Shown piece by piece: positions 5,824 to 58,830 of a stretch of 64,000 bases of DNA. Origin of the DNA: a virus. Positions within the stretch are counted from its first letter, which is position 1. The number at the start of each line of letters is the position of its first letter. The translations under genes were made by a program, and so were the position numbers. The notes under the pieces were generated by a model, which was given only the letters and a program-made list of their open reading frames with translations, did not search any database and had not been told where the DNA came from. The stretch lies in the IMG/VR virus record IMGVR_UViG_3300031994_000034; one strand, given 5' to 3'.

Positions 5824-7647
5824 ATGACTATGTTGAAGAATAAGAATCGCGGCGGCATACCCGTACATCACCCAAGGGACATGAAGGAGTTCCGCGAACT
5901 CAATCAGTCGCTCAACCAAAGGCGGTACATCGCCATCGACGCGCTGAGACCGGGACTGCTACACAGCATTACGCTGGGCGACCGCGACACGTCGGAGACA
6001 CAGGCGCAGGACATGGCAACGTGCATGGGCGCCAGGGGCACCATCAGCAACGGCCCCCTGGCAAAGGTGGCATGGTCGTTCGACAGCAGCGAGAAGACAC
6101 CCACTACCATCAGCAAAGACGGCAAACCGCTGGGACGCGGATACATCAAGTGGGGCGCTGGAGACAACCTGCCCTCACAGATTTACGCGCTCTCGAAGGC
6201 ACTTCCATACACGGCGGCTCCGCTCCGCTATCTCTCCGACCTCGCCACGGGGCTGGGCGTGCGGATGATGTACCAGTTTGAGGACGACACGATGTGTCTC
6301 TACGAACATGCCGGCTACCGCATCCTGCAACGCATTGAGGCGCTGAAGAAGGACGAGCCACAGGACACCTACGGCGGCTACTTCGCCCAGGATCCCGACT
6401 CGCAGCGCATCGTGCCCATCGGCGAACTGGACAAGGAGAAACGTCCCGATCCGCTGCTGCGTGGCATAGGCATCGACTACTGGCGGGATGCCTACCGCGA
6501 ATGGCAGCGCACATGGGAGGGCGAGGACACCACCTACGCAGATGGCACACCGCGACACATTCCCGGACTGCGCGAGTTCCTGGAGAATAACGACCTCGAC
6601 CTGAACTTTCTGCAGTGCATGAAAGAAGATCAAATGTTCGACCTCTACTTCCCCACCGTGGGCTTCGAGCGTGGCCGGCGCGGACAGTGGGACCCCCGCA
6701 TCGTGCGCATCGGTTTCCTCAGCATCGTGCATGGTGGCATCCGCTACGAGGTGATGAACGAGTACCGTCACATTCAGAACATCTACTTCGGCGAGAAGTT
6801 CCGTGGCAACACCTTGACGGAGGGGCACACCGTGAGCGGAAAGGACGAGGACGTGGTGATGTACCCCGTAGCTGAAGCCACTCGCCGACTGGAGGAATGG
6901 CGCTACCAGGTGGAGTCGAACCAGCGCACACGCATCAAGGACCGCCCCGTATGGGTGACATGCCCCATCTACTACGGCACGCAGAATTATTACCAGCAGC
7001 CAGACTGGTGGAGCATCATCCTCTCCAAAGCTTACGACTTCTCATCGACCATCCTTTTTGACAAGGCCAAGCAGCGTGAAAACTCAACTTCGTGGGGAAA
7101 AATCATCTATATCTCGCTCGACTACCTCAATATGATTTTTGCCGACGAAGGCATTGAGGGCGACAAGGAAAAGCAGCGGAAGTTCATCGACGAACTGGAC
7201 CAGAACGTAGAGCAGTTCCTGCAGCGCAGGGAGAACAACGGTAAAATGATGCGCCAGTTCATGTGGCTGGGTCAGGACGAGAAGGAACACCACAACATCG
7301 AGATCGTGGATGTGGCTCAGACGAAGAGCGACACGACCAAGGCGGGCAAAGAGGAGCTGGAACTCTCCACCTCGCCCATCTTCCTCGCCTTCGGCGTTGA
7401 TCCTCGCGATATCGGTGTGCCGATGGTCAGTGCCTCCAACGGCGGCACGGCACTCCGCGAGATACGCCTGATGAAGCAGCAACTGCTCAACGTGCGCCAA
7501 CGTGCCTACCTGCGCTTCCTCCGCGATGTCTGCACGTTCAACCGCTACGACCGCCATTGCCGCCCCGTGGTGATGCAGCAGACGTTCACGACGCTGGATG
7601 CCTCGAAGACGGGGACGAAGGAGACCGTGGCCGGAGAGGGAGCATGA
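5824..7647 (+). CDS. Portal protein candidate (607 aa)
   Basis: Portal-like size and a late-type promoter. The segment YIKWGAGDNLPSQIYALSKALPYTAAPL resembles the WG-DN-P N-terminal motif I recall from some portals (weak, from memory). Confidence 0.4.
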   Translation: MTMLKNKNRGGIPVHHPRDMKEFRELNQSLNQRRYIAIDALRPGLLHSITLGDRDTSETQAQDMATCMGARGTISNGPLAKVAWSFDSSEKTPTTISKDGKPLGRGYIKWGAGDNLPSQIYALSKALPYTAAPLRYLSDLATGLGVRMMYQFEDDTMCLYEHAGYRILQRIEALKKDEPQDTYGGYFAQDPDSQRIVPIGELDKEKRPDPLLRGIGIDYWRDAYREWQRTWEGEDTTYADGTPRHIPGLREFLENNDLDLNFLQCMKEDQMFDLYFPTVGFERGRRGQWDPRIVRIGFLSIVHGGIRYEVMNEYRHIQNIYFGEKFRGNTLTEGHTVSGKDEDVVMYPVAEATRRLEEWRYQVESNQRTRIKDRPVWVTCPIYYGTQNYYQQPDWWSIILSKAYDFSSTILFDKAKQRENSTSWGKIIYISLDYLNMIFADEGIEGDKEKQRKFIDELDQNVEQFLQRRENNGKMMRQFMWLGQDEKEHHNIEIVDVAQTKSDTTKAGKEELELSTSPIFLAFGVDPRDIGVPMVSASNGGTALREIRLMKQQLLNVRQRAYLRFLRDVCTFNRYDRHCRPVVMQQTFTTLDASKTGTKETVAGEGA

Positions 7648-7704
7648 TGAAAGTTAAGAGTTAAGAGATGAAAGGAAACATAATGCAATAAGTTTTTTTG
7701 ATTG

Positions 7705-7740
7705 GATGCGGGCCGCTGTGAAGCGTTCCGCATTTTTTTG
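7705..7740 (+). terminator. Rho-independent terminator after the portal candidate
   Basis: ATGCGG-[gccgctgtgaagcgtt]-CCGCAT followed by T7. Confidence 0.6.
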
Positions 7741-7802
7741 TTTCCGTGCTTTTGTGAGACATTAACATAAAATTTGCACGTCTTACATAAAAATATGCAC
7801 TA

Positions 7803-7838
7803 CTTTACATGGATTATCACAAATTATATTTATCTTTG
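7803..7838 (+). promoter_or_regulatory. Bacteroidetes-type promoter (-7 box TATCTTTG)
   Basis: TATCTTTG at 7831-7838, in an AT-rich intergenic region ahead of the rightward accessory block. Confidence 0.45.
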
Positions 7839-8312: not shown

Positions 8313-9294
8313 TGAAGCATTAGCAATGGCAAGAGAAGATAATATTATTATTCCTCGTTGGTTTCTTGAAAACGTAGAAAACACACTACGGATTCAAAAC
8401 AATATCAACCTTGATAAAAAGGCTGGGGAAACCTGTCAAGACCGAAATATTAGGGAATCCCTTAATGGGGTAAGAAAACTCTTAAATGGAGAAGAATTAA
8501 CAGGTATGGAACGGCTTGAAAAGCAAGGTGAGCAGAAGTCTAAAGACAAATATACATTCAATTCAATACCTCGCTTGCTTGAAATGATTAAGCCAACAGG
8601 TAGAGCAAAAGCATATTGCCAAAAGTTGATTGATTCCTTACTGCAAGAAGGATATGCCACGGATGCTAAGATAGTTAGTGATTGCCTAAAACAAATGAAC
8701 GGTGAGAAAGTTGCCATGGCAGTTATGGATGAGCAGAAGCCTGTGGAATGGAATAGGGAAGATGAACAGAGCTTAAATGCTTGCCTCGGTTATATATCAG
8801 ACGAATTTCTTAGAAGGTGGCTAATGGATGTCATTCATGTTAAATATGATAAGCCTGCCGATAAGGATGAACCAAAGTATGTTCCAAAGTTCCATGAGGG
8901 CGATTGGGTTATTGGCGGATTAACAAAGAATGAGCCACGGCAAATTGCAGAGGTTACAGAAGAAGGGTATAAAACAACTTATGGTGGATGGATTGGCTCT
9001 TCTTTTGAAAAAGATCTGCACCTGTGGACCATCCAAGATGCAAAGGATGGTGATGTGATTTGTTCTGGACAAATAATACTTTTATTTAAAAAGCGGGAAG
9101 ATAGTGATTGGAATTTTGTTATTGCTTATGCCGGAATTGATGTGTCAGGTAAATTACAAATTACCAATGGACATTGGCTTATAGCTAATGATAGTCATCC
9201 AGCCACCAAAGAGCAGCGTGACATTCTGTTCAAAAAGATGGATGAAGCGGGCTATGAGTGGGATTCCAGAAGCAAAGAATTAAGGTGTACTTAG
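8272..9294 (+). CDS. Hypothetical protein (340 aa), AT-rich; paralog of 17507..18793
   Basis: Shares LEKQGEQ, KFHEGDW, WTIQDAKDGDV and PATKEQRxxLFxKMxEAGYEWD blocks with 17507..18793. Confidence 0.7.
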   Translation: MKELTTEEKAKRFDEALAMAREDNIIIPRWFLENVENTLRIQNNINLDKKAGETCQDRNIRESLNGVRKLLNGEELTGMERLEKQGEQKSKDKYTFNSIPRLLEMIKPTGRAKAYCQKLIDSLLQEGYATDAKIVSDCLKQMNGEKVAMAVMDEQKPVEWNREDEQSLNACLGYISDEFLRRWLMDVIHVKYDKPADKDEPKYVPKFHEGDWVIGGLTKNEPRQIAEVTEEGYKTTYGGWIGSSFEKDLHLWTIQDAKDGDVICSGQIILLFKKREDSDWNFVIAYAGIDVSGKLQITNGHWLIANDSHPATKEQRDILFKKMDEAGYEWDSRSKELRCT

Positions 9295-36798: not shown

Positions 36799-37635
36799 AT
36801 GGCAAAAAAACAACGAACACACCAGCTACGTCACATCGTAGCCGTGTCAAACAACAAAGGCGGAGCCGGCAAGACCAGCACCGTCCTGAACCTCGCATCG
36901 GCCATCAGCCGGCGCATCGAAGGTTACAGAGTCCTCGTCATCGACTGTGACCCGCAGCGCAACCTCTCCTACTTCCTCGGTTGGGACGACCGACGCGAAC
37001 TGGATGGCTCCCCCACCCTCTACACCGCCCTGTGCAACGAACAGCAGGGGCTTCCAGTCTATCGTGCCGACAACGGCCTGTACTACACTCCGGCCTCCGT
37101 CAACCTGAACGGTATCGACGCCATTCTTTCCCTGCGTCCCAATCCCAGCAAAGCACTGAAGGAAATCCTTTCAAGACCCATCGACAACCGTACCGATGGT
37201 ACTGTGCTCAGCGATTCTGTCGCTGAGAGTTTCGACTTCATCTTCATCGACACCCAGCCCGCCATGTCGCGCATGACCTATAACGCCCTCTACGCTGCAG
37301 ACGGCTACATCATCCCCACAGAACTGGAAGAGGCCAGCGTCAAGGGTATGGCCAACATCGCCGTAGCCGCAGGTAAGGTGGGAGCCGACACGGGCAACCT
37401 CACCATCCACGGTATCCTTATTACCAAACTCGACGCCAAGCTGCGCTCCGCCAAACTCTATGAGCCGCAAATCCGCCAGTCGTTCCGCGAAACCTTCCAG
37501 ACGGCCATCCGCCGCTCCAAGGACATCATCGAGAGTCAAGCCCTCCGCGAGGACGTGTTCACCACCTACTCCGGCGGTCGTGCTGCAGAAGACTATACCG
37601 CCCTCGCCACCGAGTATCTGAGAAAGTTCGCTTAA
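36799..37635 (+). CDS. parA: ParA/Soj-type partition ATPase
   Basis: Deviant Walker A VSNNKGGAGKTSTVLNLA, VIDCDPQ; 278 aa. Confidence 0.85.
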   Translation: MAKKQRTHQLRHIVAVSNNKGGAGKTSTVLNLASAISRRIEGYRVLVIDCDPQRNLSYFLGWDDRRELDGSPTLYTALCNEQQGLPVYRADNGLYYTPASVNLNGIDAILSLRPNPSKALKEILSRPIDNRTDGTVLSDSVAESFDFIFIDTQPAMSRMTYNALYAADGYIIPTELEEASVKGMANIAVAAGKVGADTGNLTIHGILITKLDAKLRSAKLYEPQIRQSFRETFQTAIRRSKDIIESQALREDVFTTYSGGRAAEDYTALATEYLRKFA

Positions 37636-38019
37636 ATAATCATTCAAGCATTTACTTATTTAATCACACACTTATTTAATTATTTATGTATTCACTTAGA
37701 TGCTCGTTCACTTATTTGCTCAACTACTCAAACAAGCAGATGTCTGTTTAATCATATAAGCAAAACCATATTTAATTAGTTAAGCAAAATAGCATATAAT
37801 CATATAAGCAGATAAGCAGATAAAGAAATACTCGTAAGGCAGATATGCAAATAAGTAGGTAAGTATATGAGCGGACAATCATATAAGCAGATAAGTATAT
37901 GAGTGGTTAATTACATAAGCAAACAAGTATCTAAGCAAAAAAGAAGATGGCCAAGTTATTAAAAAGAGTACGCGCAAAGAAATCATTTAAGTATCTAATC
38001 ATTTAATCAGATAAGTATT
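37636..38019. repeat. AT-rich repeat field between parA and its partner gene (centromere candidate)
   Basis: Multiple copies of AATCATATAAGCA, ACTTATTTAAT, ATAAGCAGATAAG and ATAAGTATATGAG. Related TTGCTTAAAT / TTAAATAAGCA words at 36560-36605. Confidence 0.5.
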
Positions 38020-38541
38020 ATGGTAAAGAAAGACAAATTCAAGCAGATGCAGCAGGGTGGGGGAGTGACAGGCTCCTTCGTCGAGTCCCTGGTGCAGGCC
38101 GCCACCACCACAGCGGCCATTCAGCAAAAGGCCGAACAAGAAGCCGCCGCACAGCAGGGGGCCGGGCATCAGATAACCACGAACAATCCGTCAGGCGAAT
38201 CCGATGCCTCCCCGTCTGAGGTCCCCGTCGAGGGGCGGACCACCCTTACCGTCACGCCCGTGGCCGCCCGACAGCCCGGCGGCGAATGGCAATCCATAGA
38301 GCAGCCCAAATTCATGCGCCTGCCTAATCCGCAAATCCCACTCAACGAGTACAATCTGGTTAGCCACTATTGCTCCAGCCTCCCCAATATGACCCGCCAG
38401 GACTTCGTGGAACTTGCCATCGTCGAAAAACTCCACGCCCTCGGGCGACTCTCCGACGAGGAGTTCACCGCTCGACAAACGGAAATACGCAACCGCCCAC
38501 CACGCGGCCAACGGAAAGGAACTAAGCAAACAAGCAGGTAA
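38020..38541 (+). CDS. Partition adaptor candidate (ParG/RHH-like C-terminus)
   Basis: Position after parA. The C-terminus FMRLPNP...QDFVELAIVEKLHALGRLSDEEF looks strand-helix-helix. Confidence 0.4.
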   Translation: MVKKDKFKQMQQGGGVTGSFVESLVQAATTTAAIQQKAEQEAAAQQGAGHQITTNNPSGESDASPSEVPVEGRTTLTVTPVAARQPGGEWQSIEQPKFMRLPNPQIPLNEYNLVSHYCSSLPNMTRQDFVELAIVEKLHALGRLSDEEFTARQTEIRNRPPRGQRKGTKQTSR

Positions 38542-40487: not shown

Positions 40488-41186
40488 TCCCGTTAGGACA
40501 AACCTCCATTCGCGTCTGCGAAACGCGCGTGCGTAACGCATCTACAATGAACTCCCGTTAGGACAAACCTTTCTTCTCCCAAGCGTAACGCGCTTAATAT
40601 CAGCCATTCATTGCAAGGTTTGTCCTAACGGGAACCCGCCGTCACACCTCTCCAGTCCGACCTTCCAATATCATCCCGCCCCGGTTCACTCAAAAAACTC
40701 CCATCAGAACAAACCTCTCCAGGTAGAAACTTATAACGTCTTAAAAATCAATAATTAAAATGAAAAAGAAAGAAAACTCCTCGATTCGAGATAAGTATTT
40801 TTTTGTATATTTAAGAATACGATATAGTATATAGACGCGGCGCAGTGGTTGTAAATCAGCTACTTGCGTCAAAAAAAGTTTGTCCTGCCTGGAACTTTTA
40901 TCCGCAAAAGTTTGTCCTGATGGGAACCGAGTTTTGCCCTGCCTGGAATCGTGCTTTGTCTCAGTGGGAGCACAGGTTTGTCCTATCTGGAGGTTTTATT
41001 CATGAGGTTTGTCCTGATGGGAGCCGGCTTTTGTCCTGTCGGGAGGTTTTGTCCCAACGGGAGCACCACCATGCGGTTTGTCCTTTTAGGAAAAGACTTT
41101 TTGTCTTTTCCGGAAATGTAGGTTTATCTTCTTCGGAAACGCACGTTTATCCTTTTCTGAAACCGAAGTTTGTCCTTTTCGGAAGC
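40488..41186. repeat. Iteron array with central AT-rich stretch (plasmid-type origin candidate)
   Basis: About 17 copies of (A/G)GTTTGTCC-N4-GG(G/A)A. Four at 40488-40716 (mixed orientation), an AT-rich stretch at 40735-40850, and 13 direct copies at 40877-41186 with ~20-26 bp spacing. Confidence 0.7.
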
Positions 41187-41330
41187 GGCAAAACATAACT
41201 CTTTGACCAACAAATCAAACGAATTTGAATAAAAAAGTGCTTAAAAATATAATTTTCTCCCTTTTCGTTTGGAGGTTTATTTATTTATTTATACCTTTGC
41301 CCGCAGCTACAACTCATTTTTATACTCATC

Positions 41331-42845
41331 ATGGGAAGAAAAAAGAAAGAGAAGAGTATCACCGTAGGTATCTCCGACCTCATCTACCAGCCGCACAAGA
41401 TGTCGCGTCTGCCGGCGCTCGACAGTCGCGTGGCCTCGCGCACCATCCTTGCCATCCTGCAACGTCTGCAGGGACTCTTCGCCCTGGCCCGTGCTCAGGA
41501 ACGCGACCCGCAGCTTTATCTGAAGTTCGAGACCGACCAGTTCGAGGTGAAGAAGTCGGCCACCAGCAGCTTCGAGCGTGGCGACGTGTTGTTTAACCTC
41601 TCCCTCTCCGACATCGCCGAGCCCAACCACTACCCGGAGGTCCGTGCCGCTCTGAAGGGACTGGAGCACGTCAAGGTACTCGTGCCTGTCAAGGAGGAAC
41701 CGGGCAAATACCGCACCTCCTCGCTCATGGACATCAAGGGAGAATACGATGCCGACGGCAATCTCATCGGTACCAACTTCTCCGTTATCGTACCCCGCAT
41801 CACCGCCGAGAACATCCTCGACATCAACCTCCTTGGTGGGTTTAGCAGATTCTTACTTTTCACCGCTTCACAGTTCCGCAGCGACTACGGCTACACGCTC
41901 TACATCCGCCTCTCCGACGAATGGCGCCGCTATGGCGACGTCTTCGAGATAGGCTACGAGGATCTGCGTCAGAACATGGGCTTCGTCCTGGAGAAAGAGG
42001 AATACAAGGACAAGGACGGAAAGGTTAAGGAGCGCATCATCGACCACACCAAGAAGCACGCCTCCTGGTCGCTCTTCTGCCGCTACGTCCTCAACCAGGC
42101 ACAGGAGGAACTGCAGATGATGGCCGATCGCCAGCCGCCCGTCACCGACTTCACCTTCTCCTACGAAGGCCTGCTCAACGGTCAGCCTTTGCCTAAGTAC
42201 AAGCGGCCCGACGCCATCCGCTTCACCATCCACCCCACCGCCGTAGGTCGCAAGTTGGCTGCCGATACGGCCTTCTCTGCCCAGAGCATTCAGGCTCGTC
42301 GCATGATGACTGACATCTTCGGTCTCACTGAAGGCCAGGCTCGCACCTTTATGCGCCGCGTCACCCCCGACAATGTGGGCGACCTCCTGCGTGTGATGCA
42401 GCAACTCCAGTCTGACCTCGATGCCGGACGCCGCAAGGCCAACAACCGCACCGCCGTTGCAGTCGATGAGATAAAGAAGTTCCTCAATAAGCAAAAAGAG
42501 GATGCCATCATAGAAGCCGAGGAGGTACCGACTACTCAGTGTAATCCGACTATTCCTCCGGCTACTCAGAGTGTAGAATCCGAGACCGTCGCCTCTCCCG
42601 ACTCCCGCTGGCAGCAGTTCATCGACCAGGTGCTCGCCGACTGCCCCACCGACAACGATCGCGCCATGCTCGGCCCTTTCCTCCGCGAAAGAATCTGTCA
42701 GGCCGTCTTTGCCGACGACACCCTCGCCCTCACCGTCGGCACCCAAGCCTCCTACGACTGGTTCCGTGACTCCTACGGCTCCTTCTTTGCCAAGGAAAGA
42801 GAAAAGCACCTGCCCGGCATTGAGATAAAATTTTTCCTCGACTAA
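41331..42845 (+). CDS. Replication initiator candidate (504 aa)
   Basis: Directly downstream of the iterons, with its own TACCTTTG promoter (41292-41299). SDYGYTLYIRLSDEW is reminiscent of RepB/Rep_3-type initiators (weak). Confidence 0.5.
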   Translation: MGRKKKEKSITVGISDLIYQPHKMSRLPALDSRVASRTILAILQRLQGLFALARAQERDPQLYLKFETDQFEVKKSATSSFERGDVLFNLSLSDIAEPNHYPEVRAALKGLEHVKVLVPVKEEPGKYRTSSLMDIKGEYDADGNLIGTNFSVIVPRITAENILDINLLGGFSRFLLFTASQFRSDYGYTLYIRLSDEWRRYGDVFEIGYEDLRQNMGFVLEKEEYKDKDGKVKERIIDHTKKHASWSLFCRYVLNQAQEELQMMADRQPPVTDFTFSYEGLLNGQPLPKYKRPDAIRFTIHPTAVGRKLAADTAFSAQSIQARRMMTDIFGLTEGQARTFMRRVTPDNVGDLLRVMQQLQSDLDAGRRKANNRTAVAVDEIKKFLNKQKEDAIIEAEEVPTTQCNPTIPPATQSVESETVASPDSRWQQFIDQVLADCPTDNDRAMLGPFLRERICQAVFADDTLALTVGTQASYDWFRDSYGSFFAKEREKHLPGIEIKFFLD

Positions 42846-45590: not shown

Positions 45591-45690
45591 GTACTCGGAA
45601 TACTCGGAGGACTCAGAAAACTCAGAGTACTCGGAAAACTCTGAATACTCGGATTACTCGGAATACTCTGAGTACTCCGATTACTCCGAA
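45587..45690. repeat. Eleven tandem 9-bp TACTCGGAA-type words
   Basis: ctgagTACTCGGAATACTCGGAGGACTCAGAAAACTCAGAGTACTCGGAA... Confidence 0.85.
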
Positions 45691-46091: not shown

Positions 46092-46577
46092 TCAGCCCAG
46101 CCCTTCGCCGCTGCCGCCCTGCGTGTCGCCGCCCGAGCTGGAGCCGCCCTGAGTCGTGCCGCTATCGGTATCGTCCTGGTTGTCGTCATCGTCAGGGTCG
46201 TCTTCGTCCGTGATGAGCTTCACACTCATCGCCTGGACTATCTCGCGCATCTTCACCGAGGCGCGGAACACCAGTTTCTTCCGCCTGATCTTCACGTCCG
46301 CCGCATCGTCCGCCGCCACCGTCGAGATGCTGGGCGACAGCGTACCGATACCCAGGTCCACCGACCGTCCGTCCTTAATCGCGTCCTCCACGGCCAGCAC
46401 CATGTAGCGCAGCACAATCTCTGCAGTCGCCTGCTGTAGTCCCGTCTCGTGACTGATTTCCTTAGCCAGCCGCTCCAGTGAGAACGGGTCCGCCAACCGG
46501 CGCCGGCCCACGAACTTCACTTCCTTCTCCTTGCCGAAGCCTATCTTCGCCTCGGACTTGACATAGTGCAATGCCAT
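46092..46577 (-). CDS. Bacteroidetes HU-like DNA-binding protein with acidic/Gly-rich tail
   Basis: LAKEISHETGLQQATAEIVLRYMVLAVEDAIKDGRSVDLGIGTLSPSI. Confidence 0.5.
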   Translation of the reverse strand: MALHYVKSEAKIGFGKEKEVKFVGRRRLADPFSLERLAKEISHETGLQQATAEIVLRYMVLAVEDAIKDGRSVDLGIGTLSPSISTVAADDAADVKIRRKKLVFRASVKMREIVQAMSVKLITDEDDPDDDDNQDDTDSGTTQGGSSSGGDTQGGSGEGLG

Positions 46578-47570: not shown

Positions 47571-47639
47571 GGTTGCTATTATGTAAACACCATTCAACGC
47601 CTTTTCGGTTCCAGCCAAACCACTCTATACATGAAGCGC

Positions 47640-47990
47640 ACCCCGCGCCTCGCTCGGGGCCTCGGGTGGGTGCCGACCCCTTTTAGGGGTCGCATATATG
47701 CCGACCGACCGACCACCGACCAAGCAGCGCCCCACTCCCCATAGGGAGTGACCACCCACCGATGCCGACCCCCCTCCCTAATGCGCCCACCTAACGCAAG
47801 GCTAAGACAGCCCCAGAGGGGCAGTCTTAAAAGTCCGATTTGGTGGGTCGGTTGTCGGACTGGGCAGCAGGGTCGGCCATCCCCTCCATGAGGGGATGAT
47901 GCCTTATGGGGTCGGCAAGGTAGGACGGATTCGGGGCAACCCCATAGGGGTTGAGGTTAGGCTGGGGGTCGAAAGCTGCCGATGGCGTGG
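47640..47990 (+). ncRNA. Candidate structured RNA (nested GCCGACC / GGTCGGC arms with CCCC-loop-GGGG hairpins)
   Basis: TGCCGACCCC 47671-47680 is perfectly complementary to GGGGTCGGCA 47908-47917. Two further nested arm pairs. No credible ORF. Confidence 0.35.
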
Positions 47991-48145
47991 ACGCGCGCGA
48001 GGCCCCAACACTTTTTTAACATTCCGAAGAATGTTAAAACAAGTGTTAAAAAATATTTCCTCATGACGCGCGCCTCGGAGTCGTAACTTTGCAGCGGCAA
48101 TCGGCCAAAGACGGCCGACCCACTAACGATAAAATTTTCAATTTT

Positions 48146-48847
48146 ATGGCAACTCAAAATTCCAGCCGTGCCCTTAAGGGCAACACCGAGAGCAAGAACG
48201 CTGCAAAGCAAGTGAACAACCAGCCCGCAACCCGTAGGGTTGTCGAGACCCGAGCCATGTGGGATGTGATTTTCAATCACAGCGTCTCGCTGGTGGTGGC
48301 CTATGCACGTGGCCAGAAGCCGACCGACCCTCGCAAAGGCTTTGCCTTTGAAGCTATTGCGACCCAGCCCCACAGTCGAGCCTATGCACAAAACCTCCTC
48401 AGAGGTTTTGTGACAGGCAAGGCCGGCAAAGTCCTGAAGGACTTTGATGACCTATCCAAGGCCGAAAGCCGTGAGAAGATTGCTGTAGCAATCTTGCTCG
48501 ACTGCAAGTTGGCCAAGGAGGGCACCGAAGGTGCCAAGCGCATCTTGGGCAAGGCCACGCCCCAGCGTGAGAAGGCATTCGCCGAGGCAGTTCTTACAGA
48601 ACTGAGCAAACCTACCGAGCAGCCTACTACCCCCAAGGGGGGTAGGGCGAAGAAGTCCGACGACAAGGCTACTGCCCCTAAGGGCAGTAAGGCCAAGGGC
48701 GAGAGCAAGCCTAAGGCTACCACCCCTAAGGGTGGTAAGGCCAAGAGCGAGAGCAAGCCTAAGGCTACCACCCCTAAGGGTGGTAAGGCCAAGAGCGAGA
48801 AGGCAACTGCCCCTAAAGGGGCAAAGGCTAACGGCAAGGCCAAGTAA
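48146..48847 (+). CDS. Protein with histone-H1-like Lys/Pro/Ala repeat tail (233 aa)
   Basis: ttttATGGCAACT start after the TAACTTTG promoter (48084-48091). C-terminal repeats of KPKATTPKGGKAKSES. Confidence 0.65.
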   Translation: MATQNSSRALKGNTESKNAAKQVNNQPATRRVVETRAMWDVIFNHSVSLVVAYARGQKPTDPRKGFAFEAIATQPHSRAYAQNLLRGFVTGKAGKVLKDFDDLSKAESREKIAVAILLDCKLAKEGTEGAKRILGKATPQREKAFAEAVLTELSKPTEQPTTPKGGRAKKSDDKATAPKGSKAKGESKPKATTPKGGKAKSESKPKATTPKGGKAKSEKATAPKGAKANGKAK

Positions 48848-48883
48848 GTAAGCCTACGGCTTAACGGCCTACCCAGTACAGCC

Positions 48884-48912
48884 CTCACCCCTTAGGGGTG
48901 GGGGTTTTTTGT
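48884..48912 (+). terminator. Rho-independent terminator
   Basis: CACCCC-TTAG-GGGTG followed by GGGTTTTTT. Confidence 0.6.
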
Positions 48913-48927
48913 TGCCGTCCCGATACG

Positions 48928-49774
48928 TGGGCGGCCACACACGGCCTGGGCGCATAATGCACGCCCACGAATCGCGATCGCGCCCCCGTTCCTTGGGGGT
49001 AGGGTCTGGGGAGGGGGTCGCTGGGTGGACGCCCATAACGGCTTCGGAACGTGGACGGCCACGGCGCGACGGCATGGGCGTCCACCCGTCGCGACATCGT
49101 GGGCGTCCACATCGTCGCTGGTGGGCTTCCATTGTCGGGCTGGGCTTTGGCCGTCCACCTAAACGCGGAGTGGTCGCCCACATGAGGGGAGTGGCAGCCC
49201 CTAAACGCGAAACGACGTGGACGGCCATAACGCATGAACGTGGACTTCCACCTGACGGGAAAATGGACGGCCAGAGGTGCCTAATGGCCGCCCAACGTGG
49301 ACGGGTGTGGACGTCCATTGTGGAGGGTGGTGGTCGCTTATTGGCCGTCCATTGTGGACGGAAGTGGACGCAGGATGTGGGCAGGGGTGGGCGACCATCG
49401 TGGCCTTATCTGGCCGTCCACATTGGACGCGGGTGGTCGCCCATCGTGGACGAAGCTGGACGCTTATTGGCCGCCCATCGTGGGCGGAGGTGGGCGCAGG
49501 GTGTGGGCTTATTGGCCGCCCATCGTGGGCGGAGGTGGGCGCAGGGTGTGGGCTTATCTGGCCGTCCACATTGGATGCGGGTGGTCGCCCATTATGGACG
49601 CGGGTGGTCGCCCATTATGGACGGGAGTTGGACGGCCACCTATCCGCGTGTTGGACCCCCACCTAAAGGCGCAATGGACGGCCACGCGGGTGAAATGGCC
49701 GCCCACCTATTTGCGTTGGCCGCCCACCTGAAGCGCGCATGGACGCAGATGGACGCGCCTTAATTGGGCGCCCA
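48928..49774. repeat. Array of about 25 TGGNCGNCCA sites (~22-24 bp spacing), G-rich on the + strand
   Basis: Manual count of exact matches, for example 49052 TGGACGGCCA, 49075 TGGGCGTCCA, 49307 TGGACGTCCA, 49765 TGGGCGCCCA. Includes a perfect 45-bp tandem duplication at 49462-49551. Confidence 0.85.
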
Positions 49775-49975
49775 CACACGGTGGGCAAGCCTGCTAATCG
49801 CGCGAGTCCACGCGCAGGAAAAAATGAACTTTTTTTAACATCGTAGATGATTAAAAAAAGTCAATTTTGCGGACCGACCCCAAATTTGGAAAACCGATGT
49901 TCCGTGTCGTATATTTGCACTCGGTAACTCGCCACTGACGGCGAAGCCACAAACTCTCAAAATTCAAATCGCTTT

Positions 49976-50989
49976 ATGGCAACACGTAACGACAAGCGCA
50001 ATGGCGCAAACAACGCAACTCACGAGAACATGAACGCTGCAACGCAGCAAGTTGAGAACCGCAAGAACGGCAAGGCTCCTGCTGCCCCTACGCCCCAGGA
50101 TGGCACCCCCGTACCCGCAAAGCTCGAAGAGCTCGAAGCACGTCTGACCGAGAAGACCACCGCCCTTAACGAAGTTAAGAAGCAGTCGCAGAAGCTGTCC
50201 GAGAAACTCGCTAAAGCGAGAGAGGACGCTGACAACCAGCGTTACTGCGTAGCAGTAAGTCGTCAGAACTTGGGCACGGCTACGGAAGACGACCTCGCCA
50301 TCATCGCCAGCCGTAAGGCTGAGAACAACACGGCCGAGGGTTTGGCAAAGTTCTTTGCCAAGGAGTTCAAGGATAGCGACGAAGTCGCTAAGGCTCGTGA
50401 GGATGTCCGTGCCGAGGAGGGCTCTCTCGCTTCGGCTATAGCCGAAACCACTCGCCAGTGGAACAACGGCTACGCCGTTCTCTACGGCTCTATCGGCATG
50501 AACAAGCAGAGCTTGAAGTCCATCCCAACCCTGCTGAAATCGGCGGGTTTTAACCCCTTCCTCCAAGTTGCCACTGCCGACGGCCTAAAGGCCGCTACGG
50601 TCACTCGGACAGCCGTCCGCAAGAACGGCAAAGCCGTCAAGAAGGACGGCAAGAGGGTGTATAGATACACCCTCAGAGAGCGGACCAAGTGGTCGGCCTA
50701 TGGTCTCTTCGAGACTATAGAGCGCAACTTCCGGATGGCCGATGTGTACACCGAGGACGAACTGAAAGTTCGTATCGAACTCCTCAACACCCAAGTCAGT
50801 GCCCTAAAGGCACTGAAGAAGGCCAAGGAGGATGCCAAGTCGGACGTCCCCGAGGTAGCGGCTAAAGCCGCCGAGAGCGAGAAGGCTCTGGCCGATGCTG
50901 CTGAAGCAGCAGGTAAGGCCGTCAAGGAGAACACCAACGCCACCACCCAGCACACCACCAAAGGTGGTAAGGCCGAGAAGGTCGCTTAA
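49976..50989 (+). CDS. Hypothetical protein (337 aa), charged/coiled-coil rich
   Basis: ctttATGGCAACA start after the TATATTTG promoter (49910-49917). Confidence 0.65.
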   Translation: MATRNDKRNGANNATHENMNAATQQVENRKNGKAPAAPTPQDGTPVPAKLEELEARLTEKTTALNEVKKQSQKLSEKLAKAREDADNQRYCVAVSRQNLGTATEDDLAIIASRKAENNTAEGLAKFFAKEFKDSDEVAKAREDVRAEEGSLASAIAETTRQWNNGYAVLYGSIGMNKQSLKSIPTLLKSAGFNPFLQVATADGLKAATVTRTAVRKNGKAVKKDGKRVYRYTLRERTKWSAYGLFETIERNFRMADVYTEDELKVRIELLNTQVSALKALKKAKEDAKSDVPEVAAKAAESEKALADAAEAAGKAVKENTNATTQHTTKGGKAEKVA

Positions 50990-52040
50990 CGGCCTATAGG
51001 CCGCAGGGCTTACCGCAGTCGGTGCGGCTAACCCCAAGGGGTTAGGGTCGGTCCGAATCCGACTTGCCCACAATCCTGCACCCATAACGAGGCGTCTGCC
51101 TCGTTCAGCAGGCCGACGAGTTCCATCGGTTTCCCTTCGGGAAAGAGTGAAACCGAGCCTCCTGCCCCTAAAGGGGAGCCTCTTTAAGAGGTCGAGCCAA
51201 GTGCCCAGGCTGCTCCGACCTAAGGTCGGGTGGTGGATGGCTAAGACCATTGAACCCTATCAGGGTTCACAGTAGCGAAGCTGCTGCCTTGCTCTTTGAA
51301 ATGTTGAACGGCTTGTATCCCTGCGTTCCTTATTGGGCGAGCTTTGTCTGGTAGGGAGTTCCGCCAAGAGTCTATCAAGGTTGGCGGTATTGGGTGAAGT
51401 GTAAACAGGACGATGTGTCTATACGGCACGATACGACGGACGGCCATGCGCGGTAGTGGTGGCATAGGACGAGCCAGTAATGGCTCGGAGTAAAGACCCT
51501 ATCGGCATAAAGCAGCCGGACTAAAATGAGCGTATTGTGGACTGGAGATGCTACTGGACTGCACTTGCGAACTGTCGCAGGGTGGGGTGTCATCGGGAAC
51601 GGTGGCATGAGCGCCATACAAGTACGGACGGTGGGAGAGACCACAGAGTGACTGAGACGCTATACGGCTGGGTAGCGGGTGAACACGAGAGCGGTATGGG
51701 CAGTAGGAGACCTCGGCTATAAGACAGCGGTATGCCAACCTATTGGCGGTAATGAGTAGGCGGCGGGCAGTATTGCAACCCCGCGCTATCAAGTAGGAGC
51801 AATCGGCAATTTTGGACGTTACCAAGAATTGACGGAGGAGGAGTGCGAAATGGCGGAAGTCCGCCTGTCTGCACATAGCCGCACAAGTCTGTGAGGCACG
51901 CGAATCTCAACGCTGGGCACGGGTGTCCGGCGCGACTTGGCTATTGGCAACAAGACAGCGGACGGAATGGGCTATTATGGGCGTGCTATGCATCTGCGTA
52001 GTTTCGCTTGGGGTTCGAGTCCCCACACCCCACAAACGGA
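50990..52040 (+). ncRNA. Candidate large structured RNA (~1 kb) ending in a T-arm-like hairpin
   Basis: No credible ORF. A dense series of short perfect hairpins. TGGGG-TTCGAGT-CCCCA at 52009-52025. CACCCCAC 52026-52033 is complementary to GTGGGGTG 51582-51589. Confidence 0.4.
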
Positions 52041-52137
52041 ATTTTGAGTCTGCTATGGGCGGTCGTCGTGACGACGTTTGGCTATCTGCACGCCCATATT
52101 GTGCGAACATTATTATCCACACTATAAAGTTAAAACG

Positions 52138-52709: not shown

Positions 52710-52768
52710 CACACAGATTACACAGATCACACGGATTTCTTTCTGTGTTATCTGTGCTATCTGTGTGA
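52710..52768 (+). repeat. Inverted nonamer-word hairpin (CACAGATNA x3 / loop / TNATCTGTG x3)
   Basis: cacacagattacacagatcacacggatttctttctgtgttatctgtgctatctgtgtg. Confidence 0.75.
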
Positions 52769-53013: not shown

Positions 53014-53072
53014 TCACACGGATTCCACGGATGACACGGATTTCTTTCTGTGCTATCTGTGTTATCTGTGTG
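53014..53072 (+). repeat. Inverted nonamer-word hairpin with G-U wobbles
   Basis: cacacggattccacggatgacacgga / tttcttt / ctgtgctatctgtgttatctgtgtg. Confidence 0.75.
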
Positions 53073-57237: not shown

Positions 57238-58830
57238 ATGGACAAGATATTATCAATGTTTTTCGAGGCAGGGCGGTGGGAATACGCCATTGCCAAGGGT
57301 GTGGGTAAGGACGTTCCGAAGAACGTGTTGTACCAACTATGCAAGCCAGAAGTGCGGATGCAGATGTACGAGGCTATCCGCACGGGACAGTACGAGATTG
57401 CACCGCCACATACGGCACTTATCCCGAAGGATACGCCAGGCGAGTTCCGCACGGTGTATGTGAACGAGGCAGCTGACCGTGTGCTGCTATCCATTGCCAA
57501 CGACCTGCTGTTTGAGTTGATGCCAGACAGGGTGCATCCGCGTTGCAAGTCGTACTTGAAAGGTGTTGGTTGTGGGAGGATAGTGCAGGAAGTCAGTACG
57601 GCCATCCTTGCGGCAAAACCGCAAGGTACAGAGAAATTGGGCTGGAAGAGCGACCTGAGTAAGTATTTCGACTCGGTACCTATCCGATTCATAGATGCTG
57701 CCTTCGACATGGTAGAGGAACGGCACGGACATTCGGCCCTGATCGATGTACTGCGAAAGTATTACCATGCCGACCTCTATTTCACTCCCGATGGGGTGCT
57801 GGAAAGCAAGTACCAAAGTCTGAAGCAGGGTTGCTCGGTGGCATCGTGGCTGGCCGACGTCTTACTCTATCACATCGACGAGCGACTGACTAAGTTGAAC
57901 GGCTATTACGTCCGCTATTCGGACGATATGCTCTTTATCGGGCCGGATGCAGAGCAGGCTATGCAGGTCCTCACGGAGGAACTGGCAGCTATGGAAATGC
58001 GGCTCAACCCTAAGAAGGTGGAGTGGCTGGACGAGCGGCACTGGTTTAAGTTCCTGGGCTTCTCTATCCGTGGCAAGGACATCAGTCTGAGCAGTACGAG
58101 AATCAAGACGTTTCAGAGGGAGATTGAGAACAGGACAGTGAAAAGTGGAAAATCTAAGTTCACAATCACTTCGGCTCTCAACTCCGTGAACCGCTATCTG
58201 TATCGTGGCGACGGACAGGGGCATTCGTGGGCAACGCAAGTGCTGCCTATCGTGAACGTAAGACAGGACATCGCCACGCTGAACCTGTTCGTGATGGACT
58301 GTCTGCGGGCTGCCTGTACGGGCAAGACGAAAGTGGGCGGTCTGGGCTATGACAAGCAGGGTAGGGACGGCTGCATCGTCCGTGGCAGGGGCAGGAATGT
58401 GAGTGCCAACCGCAGGAAGACGGGCGACGACATCGGCGGCTATCTGTCGCTGAGCTGTATGCAGAACGCGATGCGGACGAGCAAGGCGGCGTATGACTCG
58501 CTGGTGCGCTCACTCAACTTCTCGCAGAAAACGCAGAAAGCGCAGAAATCTGATGCTACGAGCATCGAGGAACTGGAGGCGGCGTATGCGGTGTATAAGC
58601 ACTCCATTCCGAGCGAAAGGACGATGGGGCGTGTGCCTCGCTTCTATGCGCTGCCCGAAAGCGAGTTGAGCAATGACGATATGCTCTATGGCGTTCCCCG
58701 TGAACAGGCGGAGCGCGAATTGGAGAAGGTGCTGGCAGGGTTCACGATGCCTGAAGGGGCAGGGTGGTTCTGGCAGAGCGAGAACGACAAGGACTTGGTG
58801 GTGCTGCGCTCATGGTGCAGTGCCGCATAG
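57238..58830 (+). CDS. Reverse transcriptase (530 aa), stand-alone, with ~200-aa C-terminal extension
   Basis: IPKDTPGEFRTVYV, ADRVLLSIAN, GWKSDLSKYFDSVP, SLKQGCSVASWLADVLL, YYVRYSDDMLFIG, RLNPKKVEW, WFKFLGFSI. Confidence 0.9.
   Translation: MDKILSMFFEAGRWEYAIAKGVGKDVPKNVLYQLCKPEVRMQMYEAIRTGQYEIAPPHTALIPKDTPGEFRTVYVNEAADRVLLSIANDLLFELMPDRVHPRCKSYLKGVGCGRIVQEVSTAILAAKPQGTEKLGWKSDLSKYFDSVPIRFIDAAFDMVEERHGHSALIDVLRKYYHADLYFTPDGVLESKYQSLKQGCSVASWLADVLLYHIDERLTKLNGYYVRYSDDMLFIGPDAEQAMQVLTEELAAMEMRLNPKKVEWLDERHWFKFLGFSIRGKDISLSSTRIKTFQREIENRTVKSGKSKFTITSALNSVNRYLYRGDGQGHSWATQVLPIVNVRQDIATLNLFVMDCLRAACTGKTKVGGLGYDKQGRDGCIVRGRGRNVSANRRKTGDDIGGYLSLSCMQNAMRTSKAAYDSLVRSLNFSQKTQKAQKSDATSIEELEAAYAVYKHSIPSERTMGRVPRFYALPESELSNDDMLYGVPREQAERELEKVLAGFTMPEGAGWFWQSENDKDLVVLRSWCSAA

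Follow-up and report, generated by a model that had tools for sequence, protein, structure and literature searches.

We found that an array of short palindromic sites in a 64,000-nucleotide stretch of viral DNA (the window, that is, the whole of the stretch analyzed) is strictly linked to the gene directly upstream of it, which encodes a 233-aa protein with a Lys-rich tail. The array is genuine and non-coding, it shows both periodicity and polarity, and its core is under selection. Gene and array behave like a portable unit, a cassette that occurs in two clades of temperate Bacteroidales phages or phage-plasmids, 100-140 kb in size. Our preferred explanation, held with somewhat less than even confidence, is that the array serves as a cognate high-copy platform on which the neighboring protein would build a phased nucleoprotein complex, with maintenance of the episome as its favored role.

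The array is linked to the Lys-tail gene across relatives

Every non-redundant locus that carries a homolog of the 233-aa protein has the array directly downstream (22/22). At these 22 loci, the 1.5 kb following the homolog gene contain 8-28 sites, a density of 13.3 per kb as compared with 0.15 per kb elsewhere; in the window, the array begins 81 bp past the stop codon, and the other 63 kb hold 12 sites, against 17 expected by base composition. The linkage holds in clade B, which is without the gene for the 337-aa protein, and it holds for a remote homolog (L037) and in the cultured Bacteroides phage BS-TP1 (host Bacteroides salyersiae), where the homolog is gp57 and the array occupies 66.7-67.6 kb. 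The motif and its two-turn spacing are retained even where the Lys-tail protein is ~31-50% identical and the remaining sequence has diverged. At one locus (L007) the flanking genes are kept while the Lys-tail gene and the array are both missing (co-absence, n = 1 locus), which argues for an accessory cassette.

A scan of IMG/VR for a loose pattern of three sites listed at least 120 loci, for the most part repeats of unrelated kinds, 12-bp coding repeats among them. Among the matches listed, four loci had arrays of this kind (20-23 bp spacing, mixed centres), and the gene was present in 4/4; the ten densest other matches listed were read and proved to be different tandem repeats, with an exact 12-bp period in eight cases, a 20-bp unit in one and a 21-27-bp unit in one. 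An earlier note on this DNA had proposed three binders for the array, the products of 48146-48847, 49976-50989 and 38020-38541. Its presence beside the array at 22/22 loci, and the loss of both in L007, single out the first of these, the Lys-tail protein, whereas the other two have no comparable linkage to the array. The 49976-50989 product, the 337-aa protein, was rejected as an array partner: its gene adjoins the array in clade A only, is absent 3' of clade B arrays and is present in L007, where there is no array.

Sites, spacing and polarity of the array

The window contains exactly 25 matches to TGGNCGNCCA, every one of them inside 48928-49774 (Table 1), as compared with a mean of 1.52 and a maximum of 5 in 100 dinucleotide-preserving shuffles. 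This bears out the earlier count of about 25. One-mismatch variants, of which the earlier note gave examples, lie at 48958, 49122 (TGGGCTTCCA), 49241 (TGGACTTCCA) and 49652. The sites are spaced 21-26 bp apart (mode 23), within the 20-26 bp given before, but that range omitted further spacings of 34 bp and of 45-48 bp (twice 23), the latter being double gaps that contain one-mismatch sites or half-sites. Distances from TGG to TGG peak at 10, 13, 23, 33-36, 46, 57, 69-70, 80 and 92-93 bp, which gives a period of 23 bp and, within it, a sub-period of ~11.5 bp. The spacing approximates two helical turns; the mode is 23 bp for clade A, as against 20-21 bp for clade B.

The array is also polar: TGGNCG occurs 41 times on the + strand and CGNCCA 26 times, and the extra TGGNCG half-sites number 16 on the + strand vs 1 on the - strand. 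Most of these + strand half-sites fall within 49298-49618, in the recently duplicated part of the array; the remaining three are at 48947, 49740 and 49750. Tandem Repeats Finder (TRF) reported a 45-bp unit of 2.4 copies with 96% matches.

Table 1. Features of the cassette and its surroundings, in window coordinates
Feature	Position	Strand	Details
AT-rich palindrome	48012..48039	.	TTTTTTAACATTC-cgaa-GAATGTTAAAA; 5' of the Lys-tail gene promoter; read from sequence
-7 box of the Lys-tail gene	48084-48091		TAACTTTG; read from sequence
Gene for 233-aa orphan protein	48146..48847	+	Helical core, ~residues 33-155; disordered Lys-rich tail of T[TP]KGGKAK repeats
Intrinsic terminator of the Lys-tail gene	48880..48912	+	12-bp GC-rich stem (48880-48906), then T-run
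Array of short palindromic sites	48928..49774	.	TGG-N4-CCA sites: 28 in all, including 25 TGGNCGNCCA
Left-border inverted repeat	48948..48966	.	GGGCGCATAATGCACGCCC; read from sequence
Recently duplicated array core	49279..49625	+	23- and 45-bp units, e.g. TGGCCGCCCAtcgTGGGCGGAGGTGGGCGCAGGGTGTGGGCTTAT; repeat families D1, D2, D4
Right-border site	49765..49774	.	Perfect palindrome TGGGCGCCCA; preceded by TTAAT; previous site 48 bp earlier
AT-rich palindrome	49830..49859	.	TTTTTTTAACATC-gta-GATGATTAAAAAAA; paralog of 48012-48039; read from sequence
Downstream operon promoter	49886..49917	+	TTGGAA-18-TATATT (49886-49915); -7 box TATATTTG (49910-49917)
Gene for 337-aa coiled-coil protein	49976..50989	+	Central alpha/beta domain; C-terminal TTKGGKAEK motif

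The array is non-coding and is not transcribed from inside; no TAnnTTTG box occurs within it. The ORF that spans it (48909-49763, 284 aa), set aside before as an artefact, scored below the codon-usage cut-off, and no ORF across the array is kept in relatives. A coding tandem repeat was rejected as well, the region being split into short ORFs in differing frames in L001-L003, and the 23-bp period is not divisible by 3. The failed codon-usage score and the selection on TGG/CCA positions described below agree with its earlier description as a non-coding array of protein-binding-type sites. A CRISPR array was also rejected, as the repeated core is 10 bp long and the 13-bp spacers are related to one another. 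Searches gave no matches in Rfam at gathering thresholds, no tRNA or tmRNA, and no nucleotide similarity to deposited phages and plasmids, and the literature on the motif and on Bacteroidales phage-plasmids does not describe the element.

The TGG/CCA positions are selected and the array borders are conserved

In the four closest aligned relatives (L013, L032, L034 and L036), the array is in register with that of the window, with a few unit-sized gaps. Across four relatives, TGG/CCA positions are identical in 517/524 cases (98.7%), as compared with 1397/1718 (81.3%) for the spacers (p ~ 5e-31, Fisher); identity is 69% at the N4/N7 positions and 86% at the central CG. Judged by these identities, TGG-N4-CCA is the core under selection. 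The half-site symmetry proposed earlier (TGGNC/GNCCA) therefore stands for the symmetric TGG/CCA, which is selected, while the central CG is a feature of a single lineage. Over the whole protein family the TGG/CCA core is constant, and it is the central CG and the spacing that vary between clades; because of this constancy, covariation of protein and motif is uninformative on the binder.

The array has conserved borders in addition to its polarity, neither of which was part of the earlier description. Clade B and BS-TP1 also have elements of the GCATAATGC type where their arrays are bordered. At the right border, (T/A)AAWTGGGCGCCCA, placed 48-50 bp past the preceding site, is kept in L001, L002, L004/L005, L008, L009, L013-L015 and L025, and L003 and L012 retain the border site with its A-rich lead, but at 36-37 bp.

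The neighboring protein is an orphan with an H1-like tail

The AlphaFold2 (AF2) model of the 233-aa protein has a pLDDT of ~90 in the core and <50 in the tail. Many invariant Arg/Lys residues occur in the core, and the tail motif is kept in distant family members. The Lys-rich tail described earlier is borne out by its TPKGGKAK repeats. Membership in the H1, Hc1 or HU families was rejected, since there is no Pfam or NCBIfam match and the likeness lies in the SPKK-like Lys-rich tail only. BS-TP1 gp57 and a few other members are without the Lys tail, and the tail is thus not essential for the function of the core.

The protein matched nothing in Pfam, NCBIfam or PHROGs, nothing among PDB sequences in a profile search, and nothing at E<0.1 in Foldseek searches of PDB and BFVD; a protein search of PLSDB plasmids found none. 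Its family comprises 139 proteins, which form 35 clusters at 50% identity. When 1.84 billion representative proteins were searched with a profile, these 35 clusters were recovered and nothing outside the family; the distant family members have no Pfam domain. In particular, none of the known centromere-binding classes (ParB/HTH; the RHH proteins ParG, omega and ParR; the TubR winged helix) was matched in Pfam, PHROGs, NCBIfam, PDB or Foldseek searches, and no family or fold match to a recognizable initiator (Rep_3, RepA, lambda O, DnaA-like or similar) was found.

Flanking elements and other replication and maintenance loci

The array is located between the terminator of the Lys-tail gene, whose position is conserved in relatives, and the promoter of the downstream operon, whose -7 box is conserved in the alignment of relatives and was read as a Bacteroidetes-type TAnnTTTG box. 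The AT-rich palindrome 5' of the Lys-tail gene has a copy 5' of the 337-aa gene as well, and in L007 it lies 5' of a 332-aa homolog, with no array there; the copy at 49830-49859 is possibly an operator or an unwinding element. The 337-aa protein has no family or fold match (Pfam, PHROGs, NCBIfam, Foldseek PDB), and neither it nor the other cassette neighbor, a 185-aa protein, has an NTPase match.

Elsewhere, the element carries a canonical Rep_3-type iteron oriV at 40.49-41.19 kb, with GGTTTGTCC / GGTTTGTCCTGnnGGGA iterons (~12 direct and 4 inverted) and an AT-rich core, next to a gene for a Rep-like protein (41331-42845) with RepM/Rep3_C matches (Rep3_C in L004). It also has a ParA locus at 36.8-38.5 kb, consisting of ParA (36799-37635), the locus's own repeats and its own small protein; this sole ParA of the element lies 11 kb from the array. 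With an iteron origin and its Rep, and a ParA locus, already present, the array is a third cis element. Like the oriV it consists of phased repeats adjoining a candidate binder gene, whereas the neighbor of the oriV is Rep-like and that of the array an orphan, and the motifs differ (TGG-N4-CCA vs GGTTTGTCC), so that the array is indeed distinct from the 40.5-41.2 kb iterons, as had been claimed. The same difference of motif (TGG-N4-CCA vs GGTTTGTCCTGnnGGGA in the oriV) excludes the suggestion that the array handcuffs with the Rep iterons. HU-like proteins are encoded by other genes of the element (46092-46577).

A proposed binding platform for the neighboring protein

In the explanation that we prefer, dimers of the 48146-48847 product would sit on the symmetric TGG-N4-CCA core, and further subunits may occupy the same-strand TGGNCG half-sites, at about one per helical turn (10/13-bp alternation within the 23-bp period). 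Coating in this way, probably with wrapping of the DNA, would turn the ~850 bp of the array into a single large nucleoprotein complex that is both phased and polar, and to which the basic tails could supply additional, non-specific DNA contacts. Such a complex might act as a centromere-like segrosome or nucleoid tether that maintains the prophage extrachromosomally. We infer the identity of the binder, the build of the complex and its function; the binder is proposed because its gene adjoins the array and occurs together with it, and the true binder could instead be a protein of the host.

Arrays of at least 20 sites are typical of centromeres and maintenance loci and not of origins. As expected of a partition locus, repeated sites adjoin a binder-type gene (22/22 loci); an NTPase of the ParA, ParM or TubZ kind in the same operon was not found in the cassette. 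The lack of an NTPase there and the unlikeness of the protein to known centromere-binding proteins were counted against maintenance, as was the ParA locus with its own repeats that clade A already has.

A close counterpart in plasmids would be the sopC centromere of the F plasmid, whose 12 units are each 43 bp long, contain a 16-bp palindrome and are bound by SopB, a ParB-family protein encoded beside the ParA-type ATPase SopA. Like sopC/SopB (a type Ia centromere), the array consists of tandem units with a short palindrome (dimer-bound in sopC) directly 3' of the candidate binder gene, its copy number shifts by unit duplication, and gene and site form a cassette. Unlike in sopC, the units here are 23 bp long with a TGG-N4-CCA core, the protein has no ParB/HTH/RHH signature and the cassette contains no NTPase. 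Partial precedents are stbDR of R388, with an 11-bp period, whose HTH protein StbA needs no dedicated ParA encoded in the operon, and the RepC iteron clusters of pAD1 (25 + 3 copies of an 8-bp unit), both of which serve plasmid positioning and stability. These likewise combine a small DNA-binding protein with many short phased repeats near leading-region or anti-restriction genes, whereas they are built of direct repeats (and StbA is an HTH protein), in contrast to the palindromic sites, the orphan helical fold and the H1-like tail seen here. The array is most likely a platform for the neighboring protein, an element of a kind known from plasmids, here built of new parts.

Two-turn phasing is also found in the phi29 system, in which the histone-like protein p6 forms, with a 24-bp (2 x 12) periodicity, an extended superhelical complex that affects replication and transcription. 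The array shares the ~two-turn periodicity and the proposed extended complex; in contrast, p6 reads a pattern of bendability rather than a conserved core, and works on the termini of a linear genome.

A decidedly doubtful variant of the maintenance role is NTPase-independent tethering, in which the helical domain would occupy the ~25-40 sites while the SPKK/H1-like Lys tail contacts the host nucleoid. By analogy with EBNA1 and LANA, an extrachromosomal prophage of 100-140 kb would then reach daughter cells by riding on the chromosome. The family of repeats of EBV oriP with EBNA1, the terminal repeats of KSHV with LANA and the E2 sites of papillomavirus (ACCG-N4-CGGT) combine at least ~20 palindromic sites with a dimeric, sequence-specific domain fused to a basic region that binds chromosomes non-specifically, and systems of this type attach the episome to host chromatin; the half-site/N4/half-site geometry of the array sites further resembles that of the E2 sites. 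Those systems, unlike the present one, are eukaryotic, no homology or common fold was detected with them, and bacterial tethering is putative here. Tethering would also imply a novel class of centromere-binding protein with a novel fold.

Large temperate phages and phage-plasmids are abundant among gut and rumen Bacteroidales, and their maintenance is hardly understood. What the present analysis defines is a conserved cassette of two parts, namely an orphan protein of DNA-binding type and a site array of 0.5-1.5 kb, which is found in at least two clades and in the cultured BS-TP1. If the protein does bind the array, the pair would extend the range of known centromere and iteron systems by a new protein family and recognition code (TGG-N4-CCA with two-turn spacing), would offer a handle for stable vectors or prophage curing in Bacteroidales, and would make the episomal persistence of such phages, and its means, directly testable.

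Alternative explanations

Among the alternatives, the one that survives best, though we regard it as unlikely, is a second and probably lytic origin of the lambda-ori type, with the adjacent protein as its initiator in an O-some-like wrapped complex on the iterons and with unwinding in the 49830-49859 palindrome, possibly aided by transcription from the neighboring promoter. The lambda ori has four iterons inside the O gene, and O dimers wrap the DNA into the O-some; as in that origin, dyad-symmetric iterons ~two helical turns apart are followed here by an AT-rich tract with a palindrome and are linked to the candidate binder gene. BS-TP1 has its own DnaB-like helicase, primase and polymerase, and no annotated initiator. 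GC skew would also fit an origin: the cumulative skew of the window has its minimum at 46.8 kb, is flat until 49 kb and rises after, the + strand genes of 36.8-42.8 kb have negative skew, and the cumulative skew of L004 has its minimum at 8750, shortly before the array (9063), with L002 and L009 alike, all of these being confounded by gene orientation, while in BS-TP1 there is only a plateau (56-70 kb, with the array inside). Skew in these genomes largely follows gene orientation, which counts against an origin. A change of skew sign near the array (window, L004, L002 and L009) was counted against maintenance, as it would also fit an origin. Several points argue against an origin: the 25-40 sites are several times the number in known origins and lie outside the gene, the protein is unlike any initiator family and has no similarity to O, the cassette is dispensable in L007, where it is missing, and a complete Rep/iteron origin lies 8 kb away. 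The AT-rich palindrome, moreover, is found 5' of the Lys-tail gene and in the array-less L007, and so looks like a promoter or operator element.

Less probable again is a regulatory platform, in which the adjacent protein would regulate transcription and the array would serve as a silencer, an insulator or a titration sink. Its targets would be the long rightward operon with small early and anti-restriction genes, or perhaps the level of the protein itself in relation to genome copy number. The location agrees with this, as in both clades the array is always directly 5' of a promoter that opens a long co-directional operon (with ArdA in the window, and ArdC, MutS_I, PcfJ/K and a Lar-like gene in relatives); in clade B half-site arrays also lie 5' of the Lys-tail gene, and a duplicated operator-like palindrome is common to both promoters. 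Yet tens of sites across 0.5-1.5 kb far exceed what an operator needs, the sites stop 110-140 bp 5' of the -7 box without overlapping it, and the conserved register and recurrent clade A border sites suggest a structural complex. ParB, KorB and omega play dual roles, with which a structural complex is compatible.

It is very unlikely that the array is a by-product of tandem repetition with no dedicated binder (a slippage-prone GC-rich spacer, structural DNA, or the target of an unrelated host protein): its internal units are indeed recent duplications, as the 45-bp unit indicates, but TGG/CCA is conserved by position while N4/N7 and the spacers drift, motif and two-turn spacing outlast the divergence of the protein, and the borders and the strict linkage to one gene are conserved.

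Least probable of all is the packaging site considered in the earlier note, a pac/cos-like genome-end element read by terminase or marking the first DNA packaged or injected, for although contigs L003, L005 and L025 begin 0.5-0.9 kb 5' of the Lys-tail gene (two starts within 22 nt) and the downstream operon has anti-restriction genes typical of first-entering DNA, many other contigs break in or near the same repeat- and hairpin-rich region, even inside the tail repeats, so that assembly breaks explain the shared starts, a 144-kb contig has no terminal repeat, and the 233-aa protein is not TerS-like. A physical genome end 5' of the cassette was set aside on the same contig breaks and lack of a terminal repeat. 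Most of the long contigs, like BS-TP1, have the locus at an internal position, well away from the terminase genes, which lie at 104.5-109.4 kb in BS-TP1, and TerL-like and TerS-like ORFs, assigned by eye, are located at 27.6-30.3 kb of the window.

A polar, non-coding array of TGG-N4-CCA sites

The 64-kb window contains exactly 25 copies of the palindrome TGGNCGNCCA, all inside the array (48928-49774), in agreement with the roughly 25 exact sites that the earlier note had counted; dinucleotide-preserving shuffles average 1.5 copies and never exceed 5. There is no second cluster within the window, the other 63 kb holding 12 sites where base composition predicts 17. Sites lie 21-26 bp apart start to start (mode 23), close to the 20-26 bp first proposed, but also at 34 bp or 45-48 bp, distances outside that range; the double gaps contain a degenerate site or a half-site. 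On the + strand, TGG-TGG distances peak at 10, 13, 23, 33-36, 46, 57, 69-70, 80 and 92-93 bp, and the 23-bp period consists of 10- and 13-bp steps in alternation, so that about one TGG occurs per helical turn. The array is polar, with 41 TGGNCG and 26 CGNCCA half-sites on the + strand, hence 16 surplus half-sites on the + strand versus 1 on the - strand. By eye, the + strand of the duplicated 45-bp unit carries a G-quadruplex pattern (GGGcggaggtGGGcgcaGGGtgtGGG; 49481-49507 and 49526-49552) that is not general among relatives.

The array is non-coding and sits between transcription units. A 284-aa ORF across it (48909-49763) failed the codon-usage score that selected 70 genes in the window, and the arrays of relatives are crossed by short, frame-shifting ORFs only, which bears out the earlier reading of this ORF as a repeat artefact. 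Rfam and ARAGORN gave no match in the array, and no Bacteroidetes-type TAnnTTTG box occurs within it. A promoter-like element precedes the downstream gene (337-aa coiled-coil protein; 49976-50989, +), and an AT-rich palindrome and a -7 box precede the upstream gene (233-aa protein; 48146-48847, +). This palindrome (TTTTTTAACATYC-N3-4-GRATGTTAAAA; 48012-48039 and 49830-49859) lies ~50-70 bp 5' of the -7 box of both genes alike and is kept at about 9875-9905 in L007, a relative without the gene-array cassette; its recurrence suggests that the two genes share an operator and that the promoter module has been duplicated.

Features of the array, its flanks and other loci of the window
Feature	Position	Detail
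Strong intrinsic terminator, ends upstream gene	48880-48906	plus T-run
Promoter-like element ahead of downstream gene	49886-49915	TATATTTG at 49910-49917
One-mismatch array sites	48958, 49122, 49241, 49652
Array unit, first kind		TGGNCGNCCAC-CTAAACGCG
Array unit, second kind (45 bp)		TGGCCGCCCAtcgTGGGCGGAGGTGGGCGCAGGGTGTGGGCTTAT; recent duplicate (TRF 96% matches; repeat families)
Left array border, conserved		ATACGTGGGC then GGGCGCATAATGCACGCCC-type inverted repeat
Right array border, conserved		(T/A)AAWTGGGCGCCCA, 48-50 bp past preceding site in most clade A relatives
T[TP]KGGK(A)K repeats	48629-48800	tail of 233-aa protein
T[TP]KGGK(A)K, single	50954-50975	C-terminus of 337-aa coiled-coil protein, far side of array
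ParA	36799-37635	phrog_164; NCBIfam ParA/RepA
ATAAGCAGATAAG/ATATAAGCA repeats after ParA	37747-37930	about 190 bp
173-aa protein after ParA repeats	within 36799-38541	C-terminus RHH-like by eye
Iteron origin	40.49-41.19 kb	about 12 direct and 4 inverted GGTTTGTCCTGnnGGGA
AT-rich core amid iterons	40730-40830
Rep-like gene (504 aa), just 3' of iterons	41331-42845	weak RepM match
Reverse transcriptase (530 aa)	57238-58830	RVT_1
Amidase endolysin, phage-like large ORFs, RtcB, ArdA	window
9-bp repeat triplets	1725, 2038, 23847, 25358, 29570, 33688, 44804, 45592-45690, 46056, 46846, 52711-52766, 53016-53071, 54049, 61496, 62447

Selection on a symmetric core

In a MAFFT alignment of the window with L013, L032, L034 and L036, 517/524 TGG and CCA positions were identical (98.7%), as compared with 81.3% in the spacers (Fisher p about 5e-31), a comparison in which the four relatives are mutually related and the repeated motif helps to anchor the alignment. 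Within the sites, identity was 86% at the central CG and 69% at the N4 and N7 positions. Judged by these substitutions, the core under selection is shown to be TGG-N4-CCA, a symmetric 3+3 bp. In a second clade (clade B: L011, L023-L029, L037 and the cultured Bacteroides phage BS-TP1), the sites retain TGG/CCA without the central CG and are spaced 20-21 bp apart. Relatives whose flanking proteins are just 44-65% identical have 8-28 sites in the corresponding position; by this measure the array persists in DNA that has otherwise diverged. In L011, a second array of half-sites alone (GTGGGCG/ATGGGCG; 7440-7830) lies 5' of the Lys-tail gene, which thus has related repeats on both sides.

Strict linkage to one orphan gene

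We compared the 22 non-redundant loci in which a homologue of the 233-aa protein is followed by at least 700 bp of sequence, and in every one the array lies within 1.5 kb downstream of the gene (22/22). Downstream of these homologues we found 438 sites in 32.8 kb (13.3/kb), as compared with 42 in 277 kb (0.15/kb) elsewhere. Gene and array are also present in clade B, next to a different downstream gene. L007 lacks both and keeps what surrounds them: the 185-aa gene upstream, the spacer rich in hairpins, the promoter palindrome and the 337-aa homologue. In IMG/VR, a loose scan for three sites gave many dense matches; among the matches listed, each of the four loci whose array is of this type has the gene adjoining, and the ten densest of the listed gene-less matches proved, when read, to be tandem repeats of a different sort, in most cases with a period of exactly 12 bp. 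Locus comparison thereby shows the array to be physically and strictly linked to one orphan gene, as a portable cassette.

The core of the 233-aa protein (residues about 33-155) is predicted by AF2 to be all-helical (pLDDT about 90) and contains many invariant Arg, Lys, His and Tyr; the tail is predicted to be disordered. Its Lys-rich character, already remarked upon, reflects T[TP]KGGKAK-type repeats that are kept in most distant members and absent from gp57, the BS-TP1 homologue. A six-frame search of the window finds T[TP]KGGK(A)K in no proteins but the two that flank the array. The 233-aa protein matched no family, no solved structure and no predicted viral structure, and a profile search run exhaustively against 1.84 billion representatives returned 35 clusters, all of the 233-aa family itself; the 337-aa model gave no fold match.

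A temperate phage with plasmid-type functions

The element is a temperate phage of large size that carries Rep and Par functions of the plasmid type; it is probably a phage-plasmid. Its relatives are IMG/VR viral and metagenome contigs of about 110-145 kb and are also found in rumen Bacteroidales and Bacteroidaceae MAGs. BS-TP1 (PQ571274, 111.7 kb), which is tailed and temperate and was induced from B. salyersiae, is a distant but clear relative with its own replisome and a DGR; its authors found no homologous sequences in bacterial chromosomes (PMC12694917). Because a DGR is reported there, the reverse transcriptase of the window may be a DGR reverse transcriptase. The region 40490-41190 is a canonical iteron origin whose repeat differs from TGG-N4-CCA, a distinction the earlier note had drawn. 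In relatives the Rep-like protein is split into Rep3_C and DnaA_N proteins, and in L004 the syntenic protein has Rep3_C and lies next to a DnaA_N protein. The locus 36799-38541 is probably the type Ib partition locus of the element. Since canonical ori and par loci lie elsewhere, the array is a third cis element.

Candidate functions of the array

The array is very probably a protein-binding platform, and the adjacent 233-aa protein is its likely binder, which narrows the candidates first put forward to 48146-48847. The broader proposal of the earlier note, a dimeric protein that loads onto phased sites, is supported. The protein would bind the palindromes as a dimer and spread over half-sites of the same strand, with roughly one subunit for each turn, with the basic tails contributing non-specific DNA contacts; the 23-bp period, being above 21 bp, would impose a superhelical path, and the clade B spacing would put the sites on one helix face.

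We tentatively favour a role in episome maintenance, as a centromere or tether, because of the site number (25-40, comparable to that of centromere or maintenance arrays), a layout of gene followed by array that fits such cassettes, array turnover through unit duplication, the dispensability of the cassette in L007, the Rep and oriV already present, and a small tyrosine recombinase, typical of maintenance regions, in the clade B neighbourhood. Against this role stand the lack of an NTPase in the cassette, the separate ParA locus in clade A and the absence of similarity to known centromere-binding proteins. A lambda-type second origin is more doubtful: dyad iterons, the palindrome at 49830-49859, turns in GC skew close to the array (window, L004, L002 and L009), and a BS-TP1 replisome present with no annotated initiator would all suit it, but the sites are too many, the palindrome is promoter-associated and found without the array too, the skew mostly tracks gene orientation, and L007 lacks the cassette. 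Still less probable is a regulatory role, in which the array would silence the downstream operon of early and anti-restriction genes or serve it as a titration sink; this would suit the invariant position of the array upstream of that operon, and regulatory and structural roles could coexist. A packaging site, as the earlier note had offered, or a genome end is unlikely, and handcuffing with the Rep iterons, also offered there, is excluded because their motif, GGTTTGTCCTGnnGGGA, differs from that of the array.

In its working principle the array is comparable to centromeres (sopC with SopB, pAD1 RepC iterons, R388 StbA with stbDR), an origin (lambda ori with O protein), episome tethers (EBV FR with EBNA1, papillomavirus E2 ACCG-N4-CGGT sites) and phi29 p6, a viral histone-like coating with a 24-bp period. 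The general kind, a protein with a cognate multi-site array, is already known; the array falls into none of the families that are defined by binder homology or by an associated NTPase or initiator. The orphan fold, the SPKK-like tail and the recognition core are new, we found no description of the element in the searchable literature, and the function is directly testable in cultured BS-TP1.

Hairpin-rich regions and dispersed repeats

GC-rich tandem short hairpins (gaccccttttaggggtc, ctccccatagggag, cccctccatgagggg) lie 5' of the cassette (47620-47990; L001 4160-4420; L003 180-400; L007 9200-9800), in a region that opens with a conserved CCCGCGCCTCGCT ... GCATATATGC motif. Two independent contigs, L005 and L025, begin at most 22 nt from this motif; the shared starts are probably an assembly break, and a real DNA or RNA boundary is possible. 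Directly 3' of the 337-aa gene, about 1.1 kb without a credible ORF (51000-52100) is dense with short GC hairpins (aaccccaaggggtt, cccctaaagggg, cgacctaaggtcg, gaaccctatcagggttc); at its end, at about 52010, stands ggggttcgagtccccac, which resembles a tRNA T-arm. Neither Rfam nor ARAGORN gave a match in this stretch, which may be a large structured RNA. L004 and L032 have similar gaps after the homologous gene, and clade B has leaders of 400-450 nt. Triplets of 9-bp repeats (ACACAGATT, TCTGATTAC, TACTCGGAA, ATCTGTGCT) occur in many intergenic regions of the window, often as an inverted pair just 5' of gene starts, and resemble a regulatory motif scattered over the phage genome.
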